64,000 nucleotides of DNA, taken from NCBI RefSeq assembly GCF_988242995.1, contig NZ_OZ547043.1; one strand, 5' to 3'. Shown here piece by piece: positions 40,925 to 64,000 of this stretch (the stretch's first letter is position 1; each line of letters opens with the position of its first letter). The position numbers were made by a program, and so were the translations under genes. The notes under the pieces are model-generated. The model ran no database searches and had not been told where the DNA came from. It saw only the letters and a list, made by a program, of their open reading frames with translations.

Positions 40925-41014
40925 CAAGACAGCGCAGAAACGTTCTGTTCACCATAATATCTGACGGAGCTTTATATGTAAGCGTACAGCGAGGGCCGTA
41001 TTGACGGGGATGTG

Positions 41015-42400
41015 TTATTCAGCTGGCAGTGCTATGCGCCACGGAAGCAGTTCGCTGACCCGGTTGACCGGCCAGTCTGCTATGACGCCAGGCACATGGC
41101 GAAGGTAGCTTTCTGGATCCACGTCATTCAGTTTGCACGTCCCGATCAGGCTGTACAGTAGCGCTCCCCGCTCACCACCATGGCCAGAGCCGAAGAACAG
41201 GGTCTTCATCTTTTCACGCAACCAGCTTTCCAGGGATTTCAACAGCGGTTTCGTTTTTCGCTGACGTTCAGCAAGCCGCTGCTCTGCCGGCATTCCCCTT
41301 ATATCCGCCTCTATGGCGTACAACTGACCGATCTGCTCTAGGGCTTCTTCCGTCAGTGCTGACGGGATGCGGACGTGCACATCGTGGATCTTTCGGCGGG
41401 CATGAGCCCAGCAGGCAGCTTCCGTTATCCCACCATTGCGATACAGCTCGTTGAACCCGGCGTACGCATCCGCTTGCAGCACACCGCTGAAGCAAGCAAG
41501 ATGAGTCTGCGGATGGATGCCTTTTCTGTCCGGGCTGTAAGCGAACCTCACTGCAGGTGCCAACGCTGACCCGGCATTGCGGTCATCACGAACATACGCC
41601 CACAACCGCCCGGTCTTCGTCTTCTTATTACCCGGCAGCAGTACCTGGACCGGGGTATCATCGGCATGGAGTTTGCCGTCAGTCATGACATAGCCATGAA
41701 GCGCCTCTTCCAGCGGAGACAGCAGCCGGCAGCATGCATCCACCCAGCCCGACAGCAGTGAACGGCTCAGCTCCACACCTTGCCGGCCGTATATTTCTGA
41801 CTGGCAATACAGCGGGGTGTGCTCTGCATACTTCGAGGTCAGCACGCGGGCCAGCAGCCCCGGTCCGGCGATACCCCGCTCGATGGGCCGCGAAGGTGCA
41901 GGTGCCTGCACGATGGCATCGCACTGAGTACAGGCATGTTTTTCCCGTACCGTCCGGATAACCCGGAAGGCGCTACGCATCAACTCCAGCTGTTCGGCGG
42001 TATCCTCGCCCAGATAGCTCAGTGAACCGCCGCAGTTCGGGCAGCACGGCGCCGCAGGCAACAGTCGCTTTTCGTCACGGGGTAGTGATTCAGGGAACGG
42101 CTTACGGGTGCGGGTCTGACGCAACGGACGCTGTACTGCCGGGTCATACACCCTACCAGTCAGCGTATCGCTCTCTTTCTGAAGCCGGTTCAGATCGGCT
42201 TCCATTTGTGCGATACGGCGGGAGACTTTTTCGGAACGACTGCCGAAGTTCATCCGGCGGAGTTTATCCAGCTGCGCCTGCAGATGGTCTATTTCGCGCT
42301 CCCGGTTGCTCAGCTTTTCCTGCAGGGCGTGGATCAGCGCTTCCTGTTCGGCCAGGCGCTGTTTCAGCAGGAAGATGTCGTCAGAAGAGATGTCGTTCAT
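41015..42400 (-). CDS. tnpC: IS66-family transposase (TnpC/orf3), 51-codon in-frame deletion variant
   Basis: 461 aa; about 90% identical to the 512-aa copy at 62404-63942 but lacks 51 residues including the conserved ...[11 protein letters not shown]... region. Confidence 0.85.
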   Translation of the reverse strand: MNDISSDDIFLLKQRLAEQEALIHALQEKLSNREREIDHLQAQLDKLRRMNFGSRSEKVSRRIAQMEADLNRLQKESDTLTGRVYDPAVQRPLRQTRTRKPFPESLPRDEKRLLPAAPCCPNCGGSLSYLGEDTAEQLELMRSAFRVIRTVREKHACTQCDAIVQAPAPSRPIERGIAGPGLLARVLTSKYAEHTPLYCQSEIYGRQGVELSRSLLSGWVDACCRLLSPLEEALHGYVMTDGKLHADDTPVQVLLPGNKKTKTGRLWAYVRDDRNAGSALAPAVRFAYSPDRKGIHPQTHLACFSGVLQADAYAGFNELYRNGGITEAACWAHARRKIHDVHVRIPSALTEEALEQIGQLYAIEADIRGMPAEQRLAERQRKTKPLLKSLESWLREKMKTLFFGSGHGGERGALLYSLIGTCKLNDVDPESYLRHVPGVIADWPVNRVSELLPWRIALPAE

Positions 42401-42449
42401 AAGCCCGTATTTTACCGGGCTTATTCTGTGACAACCAGGATAAAGAGAT

Positions 42450-42797
42450 TTACAGCATGGTCAGGGAGGTCAGCAGCCGCTTGGGCTGTCGCCAGTCGAT
42501 ACCTTCCAGCAGCATCGCCAGCTGCGCCTGCGTAAGGAACACTTTGCCATCACGGGCTGACGGCCAGGCGAAGCGCCCACGCTCCAGCCGTTTGGTCAGG
42601 AGGCACAGTCCGTCACCGGTGGACCACAGCAGTTTAACCTGACTGCCGCTGCGGCCCCGGAAAATGAAAACATGGCCGGACATGGGATCGTCTTTCAGCG
42701 CCGTCTGTACTTTCGCAGCCAGGCCGTTGAAGCCATTTCTCATATCGGTGATACCGGCAACCAGCCAAATTTTGGTCCCGGAAGGTAACGGGATCAT
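42450..42797 (-). CDS. tnpB: IS66 Orf2 (TnpB-like accessory protein)
   Basis: 115-aa ORF MIPLPSGTKIWLVAGITDMRNGFNGLA..., typical IS66 orf2; overlaps orf1 stop. Confidence 0.85.
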   Translation of the reverse strand: MIPLPSGTKIWLVAGITDMRNGFNGLAAKVQTALKDDPMSGHVFIFRGRSGSQVKLLWSTGDGLCLLTKRLERGRFAWPSARDGKVFLTQAQLAMLLEGIDWRQPKRLLTSLTML

Positions 42798-43195
42798 CGC
42801 TTCAGTTCCTGTATCAGCAGAGTCAGGAGCTTTTCGCTGACATTGCCATTGAAGCGGAGCGTCCCGTGCCGGAACGTTATCTCACAGCTGATACTGAGGG
42901 TTTCCGGGTCCTCTGCGAGCGATTCTGGCTGTTCGGCAGCTGCATCGAGAGTCACAGGAAGTAGCTGGGGGCTCTCTGAAGAAGGTAATAGCAGCTTTCC
43001 CTCACGCCATTGTTGTCGCCATTTGAACAACAGATTGGCGTTAATGCCATTTTCAAGAGCAAGTTTTGAGATGGATATCCCGGGTTCACAGGAGGCAGCA
43101 ACGAGCTGCTGTTTAAATTCGGGAGGATAATTAGGGCAGCCTTTTCGCCTGCCGGGATTCACATTTTTCTGCATATCTGACACTTTGGTTCCCAC
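42794..43195 (-). CDS. tnpA: IS66 Orf1 (TnpA-like, HTH accessory protein)
   Basis: 133-aa ORF; position and size typical of IS66 orf1; true start may be the internal Met (MQKNV...). Confidence 0.75.
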   Translation of the reverse strand: MGTKVSDMQKNVNPGRRKGCPNYPPEFKQQLVAASCEPGISISKLALENGINANLLFKWRQQWREGKLLLPSSESPQLLPVTLDAAAEQPESLAEDPETLSISCEITFRHGTLRFNGNVSEKLLTLLIQELKR

Positions 43196-61918: not shown

Positions 61919-61934
61919 CCCGTAAATTCACAAC

Positions 61935-62132
61935 ATGAAATCATTAACCACAGAAACGGCGCTGGATATTCTGATTGCGTGGCTGCAGGACAATATTGAC
62001 TGCGAATCAGGGATTATCTTCGACAACAATGAGGATAAAACGGATTCAGCAGCACTGTTTCCCTGTATCGAACAGGCCAGAGAGGATATCCGTACCCTGC
62101 GCCAACTGCAGCTTCAGCACCAGAACCGGTGA
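61935..62132 (+). CDS. Hypothetical small acidic protein (65 aa)
   Basis: ORF only; weak RBS. Confidence 0.4.
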   Translation: MKSLTTETALDILIAWLQDNIDCESGIIFDNNEDKTDSAALFPCIEQAREDIRTLRQLQLQHQNR

Positions 62133-62366
62133 GTCTCACTCATCATCTCACTCACCAGACTTCATTCCACTGACGCCAGCCTGAACACGGCTGGCGTTTT
62201 CATTTATCTGCAAAAAGGAATATCGATTATGTCTGAAATCACAGTCTCCCGTCCGGAAGTGGTCAACGAGAATACGGACGTTATCTGCTCCACCTCAGTC
62301 AGGTACAGGTCACTGGAATATGATAATTTTCCGGAAATCAGCGAAGCGAACATTCTGAGCACATTT

Positions 62367-64000
62367 GTAAGCGTGCAGCAAGAACCGTATTGACGGGGAT
62401 GTGTTATTCAGTCGGCAGTGCTACGCGCCAGGGGAGCAGTTCGCCGACCCGGTTTATCGGCCAGTCGGCTATGACGTCAAGGACATAGCGGAGGTAGCTT
62501 TCTGGCTCCACTCCGTTCAGTTTGCACGTCCCGATCAGGCTGTACAGCAGCGCTCCCCGCTCTCCTCCATGATCCGAACCGAAGAACAGGTAGTTTTTGC
62601 GGCCCAGACTGACCATCCGCAACGCATTTTCAGCGATGTTATTGTCCGCCTCAGCCCAGCCATCATCTGCATAGTACGTCAGCGCCGGCCACTGGTTCAG
62701 GGCGTATGCGAACGCTTTCGCCAGTTCTGAGTGTCGCGACAGGGTTTTCATCTTTTCACGCAGCCAGCTTTCCAGGGATTTCAGCAGCGGTTTCGTTTTC
62801 AACTGACGTTCGGCAAGGCGCTGCTCCGCCGTCATTCCCCTTATCTCTGCCTCGATGGCGTACAGTTCGCCGATCCGTTTCAGCGCTTCCTCCGTCAGGG
62901 CTGACGGGGTGCGAACGTGCACATCGTGGATTTTACGGCGGGCGTGAGCCCAACAGGCGGCTTCCGTTATCCGGCCATCCCGGTACAGCTCGTTGAACCC
63001 GGCGTATGCATCCGCCTGCAGTACACCACTGAACCCCGCAAGATGGGTCTGCGGATGGATGCCTTTTCTGTCCGGGCTGTAAGCGAACCACACCGCCGGC
63101 GCCAGCGTTGACCCGGCGTTACGGTCGTCACGAACGTAGGTCCATAACCGCCCGGTCTTCGTTTTCTTATTGCCTGGCAACAGCACCGGGACAGGCGTGT
63201 CATCAGCATGGAGCTTACCGTCAGTCAGCACATAGTCCTGAAGCGCTTCTTCCAGCGGTGACAGTAGCCGGCAGCATGCATCCACCCAGCCCGACAGCAG
63301 TGAACGACTCAGCTCCACGCCCTGGCGGCCGTACATTTCAGACTGGCGGTACAGCGGGGTGTGCTCTGCATACTTTGAGATCAGCACGCGGGCCAGCAGC
63401 CCCGGTCCTGCGATACCCCGCTCGATGGGCCGTGAAGGCGCGGGGGCCTGCACGATGGCATCGCACTGAGTACAGGCATGCTTTTCACGTACAGTCCGGA
63501 TAACCCGGAAGGCGCTGCGCATCAGCTCCAGCTGTTCGGCGGCATCCTCACCCAGATAGCTCAGCGAGCCTCCACATTCCGGGCAGCATGACGCTGCCGG
63601 CAGCAGCCGTTTTTCATCGCGGGGGAGTGATTCGGGGAACGGTTTGCGGGTGCGGGTTTGACGCAGCGGGCGCTGCACGGCCGGGTCGTCAACCCGACCG
63701 GTAAGGGTATCACTTTCTTTCTGAAGTGCCTTCAGGTCAGCTTCCATCTGTGCGATACGACGGGAGACTTTTTCCGAGCGGCTGCCGAAGTTCATCCGGC
63801 GCAGCTTATCCAGCTGTGCCTGCAGATGGTCTATTTCGCGTTCACGCTCGTTCAGCTTTTCCAGCAGGGCATGGTTTAGCGCCTCCTGTTCGGCAAGGAG
63901 ACGTTTCAGTGCATTGATATCGTCAGGAAGTGAGCTGCTCATACCGGGTATATTACCAGGCTCATTCAGCGTCGACCAGGATAAAGAGGCTTACAACATA
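62367..64000 (-). mobile_element. IS66-family insertion sequence, copy 2 (truncated by window end)
   Basis: Terminal repeat GTAAGCGTGCAGC at 62367; intact tnpC; only the last codons of orf2 (from 63991) lie inside the window. Confidence 0.85.
62404..63942 (-). CDS. tnpC: IS66-family transposase (TnpC/orf3), full length
   Basis: 512-aa ORF; N-terminal coiled-coil/leucine-zipper region, CxxC zinc-ribbon, conserved ...[11 protein letters not shown]... region. Confidence 0.9.

Follow-up and report, generated by a model that had tools for sequence, protein, structure and literature searches.

The pheV island studied here raises the question whether two IS66-family elements that bracket its Ag43 and toxin-antitoxin genes form a functional pair, be it as a composite transposon or as a substrate for recombinational deletion of the intervening cargo, or whether they are unrelated elements with separate histories. 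We analysed a window of 64,000 nucleotides (contig NZ_OZ547043.1 of the NCBI RefSeq assembly GCF_988242995.1), in which a tRNA-Phe gene followed by an integrase ORF identifies the island as a pheV island, and surveyed 5,426 complete E. coli genomes. When window positions 40000-64000 were used as a 24-kb query, identity reached about 98% in the best-matching genomes of the E. coli collection, and the island of PS_131_S11 is collinear with the window. The features around the two elements, referred to as copy 1 and copy 2, are the following:

38647..38722, plus strand: tRNA-Phe gene (pheV), island attachment site (ARAGORN; yqgA-pheV-integrase synteny in PS_131_S11)
38920..40185, plus strand: tyrosine recombinase, the island integrase (421-aa ORF; annotated at the same place in PS_131_S11 as tyrosine-type recombinase/integrase)
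40754..40977, plus strand: C-terminal remnant of an IS110-family transposase gene, interrupted by copy 1 (PS_131_S11 annotation; leuX island of ECA64)
43267..62366, no strand: bracketed module, 19,100 bp (Pfam; annotation of the 99.5%/96.5% identical PS_131_S11)
62229..62366, plus strand: 5' fragment of a DUF4942 gene, 46 codons, truncated by copy 2 (uninterrupted gene in BL21)

A repeat search of the window returned direct repeats between 40974-42458 and 62363-63999 with 81-87% identity and no inverted IS66 pairs, in agreement with the original prediction of two directly oriented IS66-family copies whose genes are on the minus strand. The predicted cargo of about 19 kb, reaching from the zinc-ribbon genes to the toxin-antitoxin module and including Ag43, was likewise confirmed by Pfam. 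The module comprises two DUF7828/zinc-ribbon genes, YagK/YfjJ, Hha-like, HTH and GTPase genes, Ag43 (51203-54124), an 840-aa ORF, and IrmA, DUF905, DUF932, antirestriction, JAB, DUF987, CbeA/CbtA (about 60600-61433), DUF5983 and DUF957 genes. It extends from the zinc-ribbon genes to CbtA/CbeA and the truncated DUF4942 gene. Pfam matches were obtained for the zinc-ribbon proteins, the YagK/YfjJ protein, the GTPase, the Ag43-type autotransporter and CbeA/CbtA. The 98-aa ORF of the IS110 remnant left of copy 1 had no Pfam match; this remnant and the one upstream of kpsF were also considered as repeats that might bound a larger unit, which was rejected as there is no similarity between them.

Both elements show the tnpA-tnpB-tnpC gene order and the GTAAGCG terminal inverted repeats of the IS66 family. 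They are, nevertheless, two different IS species, named ISEc8 and ISEc22 in the RefSeq annotation, and not recent duplicates, as the prediction had rightly held from a protein identity of about 90% in the N-terminal region: the TnpC proteins of copy 1 and copy 2 share 412 of 461 aligned residues (89%), with another 51 residues missing from copy 1, and at the DNA level copy 1 is 83% identical to ISEc22 with 25 gaps, the longest perfect run being 62 bp. In their left inverted repeats, however, ISEc8 and ISEc22 differ at only four positions (36 of 40 shared), so that the ISEc22 transposase might also act on the left end of copy 1.

Copy 1 consists of the following parts:

40978..43266, minus strand: copy 1, ISEc8-like IS66-family element, 2,289 bp, with a 153-bp internal deletion (alignment to intact ISEc8)
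41015..42400, minus strand: tnpC of copy 1, 461 aa, with an in-frame 51-aa deletion at 41196/41197
42450..42797, minus strand: tnpB of copy 1 (TnpB_IS66, Pfam)
42794..43195, minus strand: tnpA of copy 1 (HTH_Tnp_1, Pfam; annotated as 42794-43174 in a related genome)

In comparison with the intact 2,442-bp ISEc8 that strain 98232 carries in the same context, copy 1 shows 99.3% identity, interrupted by one gap of 153 bp; it has the same gene order and termini (GTAAGCG.../...CGCTTAC, both intact, each end reading GTAAGCGTACAGC), but lacks 153 bp of tnpC as well as the 8-bp duplication and carries several non-synonymous changes. The deletion is edged by the microhomology ACAGG. Besides HTH_Tnp_1 and TnpB_IS66, the proteins of copy 1 match LZ_Tnp_IS66, zf-IS66, DDE_Tnp_IS66 and DDE_Tnp_IS66_C; the match to the DDE_Tnp_IS66 profile, however, covers only positions 1-222 of 284, compared to 1-283 of 284 for copy 2, so that the complete DDE domain of an autonomous element is present in copy 2 and not in copy 1. 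The 51 deleted residues presumably contain the catalytic glutamate, as judged from the transposase family and the shortened Pfam match; a literature search on the IS66 catalytic motif returned nothing directly usable. Non-synonymous outnumber synonymous changes in tnpC of copy 1 by 11 to 2 relative to intact ISEc8 and by 4 to 1 between two deleted alleles, and three of the substitutions, R199C, W285R and L437P, affect residues common to ISEc8 and ISEc22. From these sequence features, copy 1 is probably immobile.

The 153-bp deletion junction was found in 2,204 of the 5,426 genomes (41%), with a median of one copy per genome. Such an abundance would be explained if the 461-aa TnpC had been retained as a domesticated or regulatory protein, e.g. 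a DNA-binding inhibitor of IS66-family transposition, and it is true that the deletion is in frame, that the four alleles examined all have an open reading frame and that the leucine-zipper and zinc-finger domains are kept. We regard this as highly improbable, however, given the excess of non-synonymous changes, the alteration of residues conserved between ISEc8 and ISEc22 and the interruption of the gene by IS100 or its truncation in several genomes; moreover, the wide spread is accounted for by linkage to the island module.

Copy 2 is cut by the end of the window and comprises:

62367..64000, minus strand: copy 2, ISEc22 (IS66 family), left 1,634 bp (comparison with PS_131_S11)
62404-63942, minus strand: tnpC of copy 2, 512 aa, with a full DDE domain (Pfam; LZ, zf, DDE and C-terminal domains complete)
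from 63991, minus strand: last 10 nt of tnpB of copy 2 (window sequence)

The far end of this copy, for which a search beyond the window had been proposed, was located in PS_131_S11, whose complete 2,453-bp ISEc22 contains tnpA, tnpB and tnpC, is 100% identical to copy 2 over the 1,634 bp and has ataatttt as its right flank. The tnpA and tnpB genes of copy 2 are known from that genome, and the completeness of copy 2 and its right flank are likewise inferred from related genomes identical over these common 1,634 bp. The ends of ISEc22 are GTAAGCGTGCAGC (IRL) and GTAAGCGTCGTCT (IRR). Copy 2 is probably intact and active.

Neither element is flanked by an 8-bp target-site duplication. The flanks are ctttatat and cactattt for copy 1, as had been noted before, and gcacattt and ataatttt for copy 2, where the right one was read from PS_131_S11; no duplication is seen between the outer flanks of the pair (ctttatat in the window, ataatttt in PS_131_S11), nor do the inner flanks of the two copies have one in common. 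The positive control was ISEc23, found in this same island of GN03590: CGTTTACC flanks it on both sides as a perfect duplication of 8 bp. At copy 1, the left flank belongs to the IS110 remnant, which in the leuX island of ECA64 runs on from ...CTTTATAT into ACCCAGTAGG (...CTTTATAT/ACCCAG), and the right flank is in other islands continuous with a fucP/rbsK/deoR cargo region. Since the two flanks are thus not contiguous DNA in empty-site comparisons, the duplication is truly absent, and its absence reflects rearrangement, as the prediction had suspected. Two 200-bp junctions reconstructed for a simple insertion of copy 1 (site B on the left, site A on the right) occurred in none of the 5,426 genomes, so that one adjacent deletion and recombination between two ISEc8 copies are indistinguishable for this element. 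At copy 2, the intact DUF4942 gene of BL21 runs on from ...GAGCACATTT into GAACAACTG; the ISEc22 element replaces 971 bp of the BL21 sequence, i.e. this part of the target region is gone beside the element. The missing duplications are thus explained by secondary rearrangement and provide no argument against IS66-family membership.

The distribution of the junctions bears directly on the composite-transposon reading of the original prediction. The copy 1/cargo junction was present in 1,758 of the 5,426 genomes, the copy 1/IS110 junction in 123, and the left and right junctions of ISEc22 in 30 and 27, respectively. In the form of a functional hetero-IS transposon, this reading would have TnpABC of ISEc22 pair the right end of its own element with the left end of copy 1 and thereby move the 24-kb segment. 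The direct orientation does provide one left and one right terminus as outer ends, the similar left inverted repeats both begin with GTAAGCGT, and tnpC of ISEc22 is intact with a full DDE domain; also, two IS elements around non-IS cargo are reminiscent of the composite transposons Tn10, Tn5 and Tn9. Unlike in those, however, two IS species are involved here, one of them defective, with no duplication round the unit and no second site seen. About 30 genomes have the ISEc22 of copy 2, in every case with DUF4942 on one side and kps on the other, and 27 of the 30 genomes with its left junction have the identical right junction. The numbers for the two junctions of copy 1, 123 versus 1,758 genomes, show separate histories. 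In addition, many other genomes possess copy 1 and its cargo but no ISEc22, and this combination also occurs at a different tRNA site: in E-1246, the defective copy 1 and the cargo lie beside a tRNA-Ser gene, which we take to be serX, with DUF4942 intact and ISEc22 absent. All listed occurrences of the unit of copy 1, cargo and copy 2 were between the pheV integrase region and kps, and none among them was at a second genomic location. With the incomplete catalytic domain of copy 1, the lack of a duplication at the outer flanks and this single site, the composite-transposon reading does not hold up, and a functional transposon of this kind has very little probability. That the Ag43/toxin-antitoxin segment is a latent hetero-IS composite transposon not yet caught at a second site strikes us as scarcely credible.

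The second part of the prediction, i.e. that the pair is a substrate for recombinational deletion, is possible in principle: the two copies are direct repeats and share eight perfect runs of at least 25 bp, about the size of the minimal efficient processing segment in E. coli, and islands without the cargo do occur. The copies differ, however, by 17% of their sequence in addition to the 25 gaps, and active mismatch repair makes recombination drop sharply as sequences diverge. A 4.4-kb query built from the two outer flanks was searched against the 5,426 complete genomes and revealed seven with a short pheV-kps interval. The variants lacking the inter-IS segment that the prediction had proposed to look for therefore exist, but the three of them that were checked at the sequence level arose by other deletions: in each, copy 1 is broken (at 43077, 41428 or about 41431) and joined to non-IS66 DNA. 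An ISEc8 x ISEc22 hybrid of 2.3-2.45 kb joining the outer flanks was found in 0 of 5,426 genomes, which is weak negative evidence because the two elements occur together in only about 30 genomes. No IS66 hybrid was present in the examined variants without cargo, whose illegitimate breakpoints fell within copy 1, within the integrase gene (BL21) or elsewhere. These results suggest that the Ag43/yee module is lost in nature mainly by illegitimate deletions, several with an endpoint within copy 1, and make it quite unlikely that the IS pair acts in practice as a homologous-recombination substrate for deletion of the 19-kb cargo.

Taken together, we consider it highly probable that the two elements are unrelated members of the IS66 family with separate histories, situated on either side of the conserved flu/yee backbone module in the pheV island. 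Copy 1 would be an old, defective ISEc8, in which a slippage-type deletion of 153 bp took the C-terminal fifth of the TnpC DDE domain and whose tnpC then appears to have accumulated mostly non-synonymous changes, while roughly one third of E. coli genomes probably inherited the element along with the module, at more than one tRNA site. The copy 1/IS110 junction beside the integrase may have formed by an IS-associated deletion or by IS-IS recombination, which would have removed variable left cargo. In one lineage, ISEc22 would have inserted at the island's right end, into the DUF4942 gene, and the 971 bp to its right may have been lost by an adjacent deletion or by recombination between two ISEc22 copies, a loss that would have put the module immediately upstream of the kps capsule locus. 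Accordingly, the bracket would be a by-product of IS accumulation at the module boundaries of a mosaic island; it would not be a mobile unit, nor would it serve efficiently as a recombination substrate.

In such islands, an IS-separated mosaic structure like this one is ordinary and has already been described for GI-pheV, where insertion sequences lie between the gene modules, flu and yee among them (Nhu et al. 2024, PMC11537424); IS66 is mentioned nowhere in that paper. GI-pheV and the present island have in common the integration at the 3' end of pheV, a P4-type integrase adjoining the tRNA gene, the flu (Ag43) and yee (toxin-antitoxin) modules, the mosaic of modules separated by insertion sequences and a right end that abuts the kps capsule locus. 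The present island is a short version that holds only the flu/yee backbone between integrase and kps and no pap, sat, iuc or nan modules. Beyond correct annotation, the significance of these findings is small. The 153-bp deletion junction, carried by 41% of the complete E. coli genomes, and the four IS-flank junctions provide typing markers for variants of the pheV-kps island. Finally, the locus illustrates that what looks like a composite transposon within a pathogenicity island can arise by coincidence from an ancient, immobile IS relic, passed on with the island backbone, and a recent, lineage-specific insertion.

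E. coli PS_131_S11 has a pheV region collinear with the window, to which it is 99.5% identical over 31000-58523 and 96.5% identical over 58582-64000. The only tRNA gene within the window is tRNA-Phe (38647-38722). The original prediction had placed two direct IS66-family copies with minus-strand genes in this region, and this was borne out both by the ORF lists, from which the features below are taken, and by a repeat search over 36000-64000, in which three families of direct repeats (81-87% identity) connected 40974-42458 with 62363-63999 and no inverted pairs were found.

38920-40185: integrase ORF, after tRNA-Phe
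41015-42400, minus strand: tnpC of copy 1, 461 aa
42450-42797, minus strand: tnpB of copy 1
42794-43195, minus strand: tnpA of copy 1
62404-63942, minus strand: tnpC of copy 2, 512 aa

Copy 1 was read in the sequence from its left end at 40978 (...ctttatat / GTAAGCGTACAGCG) to its right end at 43266 (...CTGTACGCTTAC / cactattt), which gives a length of 2,289 bp and the flanking octamers that had been predicted. Copy 2 begins at 62367, directly after ...gcacattt, and is cut by the window end. Both elements have the gene content and terminal repeats of the IS66 family. According to Pfam, the complete set of IS66 domains is present in both TnpC proteins, and the tnpB and tnpA products of copy 1 are TnpB_IS66 and HTH_Tnp_1, respectively. 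Of 461 aligned TnpC residues, 412 are identical between the copies, in agreement with the predicted identity of about 90%, and copy 1 has a gap of 51 residues.

The bracketed segment (43267-62366) comprises 19,100 bp, and Pfam analysis of the window ORFs confirmed as cargo two DUF7828/zinc-ribbon proteins, a YagK/YfjJ protein, a GTPase, an AIDA/autotransporter protein (Ag43), the CbeA antitoxin and the CbtA toxin. The gene upstream of the cbeA/yeeU antitoxin is frameshifted near codon 198 and therefore runs on in the antitoxin frame, which produces a 353-aa ORF at 59899-60960; in PS_131_S11 this gene carries the annotation of a frameshifted pseudogene. The antitoxin itself probably still begins at its own GTG. 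The order in PS_131_S11 is yqgA, pheV, integrase, an IS110-family remnant, an IS66 element with a 1,386-nt tnpC, the zinc-ribbon genes, Ag43, CbtA, a truncated DUF4942 gene, an ISEc22 with the complete set of tnpC, tnpB and tnpA, and finally kpsF and the capsule genes.

RefSeq names the pair ISEc8 and ISEc22. Compared to the intact 2,442-bp ISEc8 that strain 98232 carries in a shared context, copy 1 shows 16 substitutions and one 153-bp gap; compared to full ISEc22, it is 83% identical, has 25 gaps and contains eight perfect runs that reach 25 bp, the longest of 62 bp. Copies 1 and 2 are different IS species. For the far end of copy 2, which the original prediction had proposed to look for, PS_131_S11 offers a counterpart: its complete ISEc22 of 2,453 bp, ending ...GACGACGCTTAC / ataatttt, is identical to copy 2 over the 1,634 bp in the window. 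Extrapolating from related genomes, copy 2 would continue past 64000 as a complete 2,453-bp ISEc22, with ATAATTTTTACGTTCAAGAC next to it and kpsF beginning some 0.8 kb later.

The 153-bp deletion in copy 1 is bounded by the pentamer ACAGG, and the residues lost from its TnpC correspond to a stretch including ...DNNI(T/A)ENALR...GRKN(F/Y)L, which, in this family, probably contains the catalytic glutamate. Because of this deletion, the DDE_Tnp_IS66 match of copy 1 ends at profile position 222 of 284, whereas that of copy 2 covers 1-283. The ratio of non-synonymous to synonymous changes in tnpC of copy 1 is 11:2 versus the element of strain 98232 and 4:1 versus the allele of strain E-1246, and the changes include R199C, W285R and L437P, at residues common to ISEc8 and ISEc22. 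A 47-bp probe spanning the deletion junction (41177-41223), which cannot seed on intact copies, detected the deleted allele in 2,204 of the 5,426 complete E. coli genomes; the median was one copy per genome, and the matches comprised 2,333 chromosomal and 58 plasmid places. The allele is present in JJ1886, Nissle 1917 and B7A, among others, almost always as a single chromosomal copy. This distribution is the one expected of an inherited fossil rather than an active IS. In strain GN03590, which carries the same island, an IS100 has been acquired inside tnpC of copy 1, in addition to an ISEc23 (5133-6934 and 9732-12263 of that locus).

The four junctions were counted in the same collection using 200-bp probes, a genome being scored if one place covered at least 80% of the probe.

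Genomes (of 5,426) carrying each junction of the two IS66 elements
IS110 remnant / copy 1: 123
Copy 1 / zinc-ribbon flank: 1,758
DUF4942' / ISEc22: 30
ISEc22 / kps flank: 27

These counts mark the right junction of copy 1 as old and as part of the module backbone, and put the complete bracket with both IS66 elements at no more than about 30 genomes. Strain E-1246 has the same defective copy 1 and the same cargo next to a tRNA-Ser gene, presumably serX, with a DUF6404 fragment on the left, an intact DUF4942 and no ISEc22.

Both elements lack the 8-bp duplication typical of IS66 insertions, for a traceable reason. Neither the outer flanks (ctttatat / ataatttt) nor the inner flanks (cactattt / gcacattt) match. 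A third IS66-family element, the ISEc23 that interrupts the YagK/YfjJ gene in GN03590, served as a control: it is flanked by a perfect 8-bp duplication, CGTTTACC. The right flank of copy 1 continues in MS 200-1 and C8 as ...GGTTATTT(A/G)CACTATTTTATCCC, with the fucP/rbsK/deoR region to the left, and the left flank continues in the leuX island of ECA64 as ...GAGCTTTATAT / ACCCAGTAGG; thus, the two flanks come from different DNA, and the rearrangement at which the missing duplication had been taken to hint is real. Neither of the reconstructed simple-insertion junctions of copy 1 was found in the 5,426 genomes. The present state may result from one adjacent deletion or from recombination between two ISEc8 copies. 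In ECA64, the IS110 remnant seen left of copy 1 lies downstream of the integrase gene in the tRNA-Leu (leuX) island (3170-5487 of that locus), uninterrupted by ISEc8 and with a fimbrial cluster after it.

Regarding copy 2, the DUF4942 target is uninterrupted in BL21 (...GAGCACATTT / GAACAAC), and the right flank of copy 2, ATAATTTTTACG, is found 971 bp beyond the target site. Hence ISEc22 replaces 971 bp. Lost with them from the window lineage are the remainder of DUF4942 and another, second IS110 remnant. In genomes without ISEc22 (BL21, 4949-5131 of its locus; also LH10-b-1, E300010 and E3), the space between DUF4942 and kpsF contains this second remnant, some 0.8 kb upstream of kpsF; it is not similar to the one left of copy 1.

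The bracket had also been described as composite-transposon-like, which did not hold: the duplication test and the multiple-site test were both negative, and the ends are ISEc8 and ISEc22 rather than the same element. As to the proposal that the pair is a substrate for recombinational deletion of the cargo, the copies are direct and islands with a short interval exist. We searched for recombinants with a 4.4-kb query (2.2 kb left of copy 1 plus 2.2 kb right of ISEc22), which would join as one place across any hybrid IS of 2.3-2.45 kb. Seven genomes reached a coverage of at least 80%, three of which were examined in sequence. In LH10-b-1, copy 1 is retained as far as 43077, within tnpA, and about 12 unmatched bases separate it from DNA lying 50 bp ahead of the second IS110 remnant; from the hit table, PSJ-23 matches this strain in span and annotated features. 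E300010 breaks inside tnpC of copy 1 at 41428, joined to 45735, and E3 at about 41431, joined to the cbtA region (about 61308). The latter two breaks lie within about 3 bp of each other (4152 in both loci), and their right-hand partners differ. In three other short-interval genomes, the interval contains IS1 or other elements, and in the B-strain lineage the integrase gene is truncated and internal deletions are present. No ISEc8/ISEc22 hybrid is among the variants examined. This absence is weak negative evidence, since only about 30 genomes are at risk; at 17% divergence, the pair is a poor recombination substrate. In LH10-b-1, the integrase is preceded by the end of another island (DUF4942 gene and ParD/ParE pair; 1-1426 of the locus), not by pheV, and this non-pheV DNA directly upstream of the integrase suggests tandem islands.

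GI-pheV has been described as a mosaic of modules, flu and yee included, that are separated or flanked by insertion sequences, with the kps locus as its right-hand landmark (Nhu et al., PMC11537424); the window provides an example of such an island. The two-IS66 bracket is real but ordinary and already explained; the observation behind the original prediction is confirmed and its interpretation partly supported. The 153-bp-deleted ISEc8 allele would be a marker of the flu/yee island backbone.
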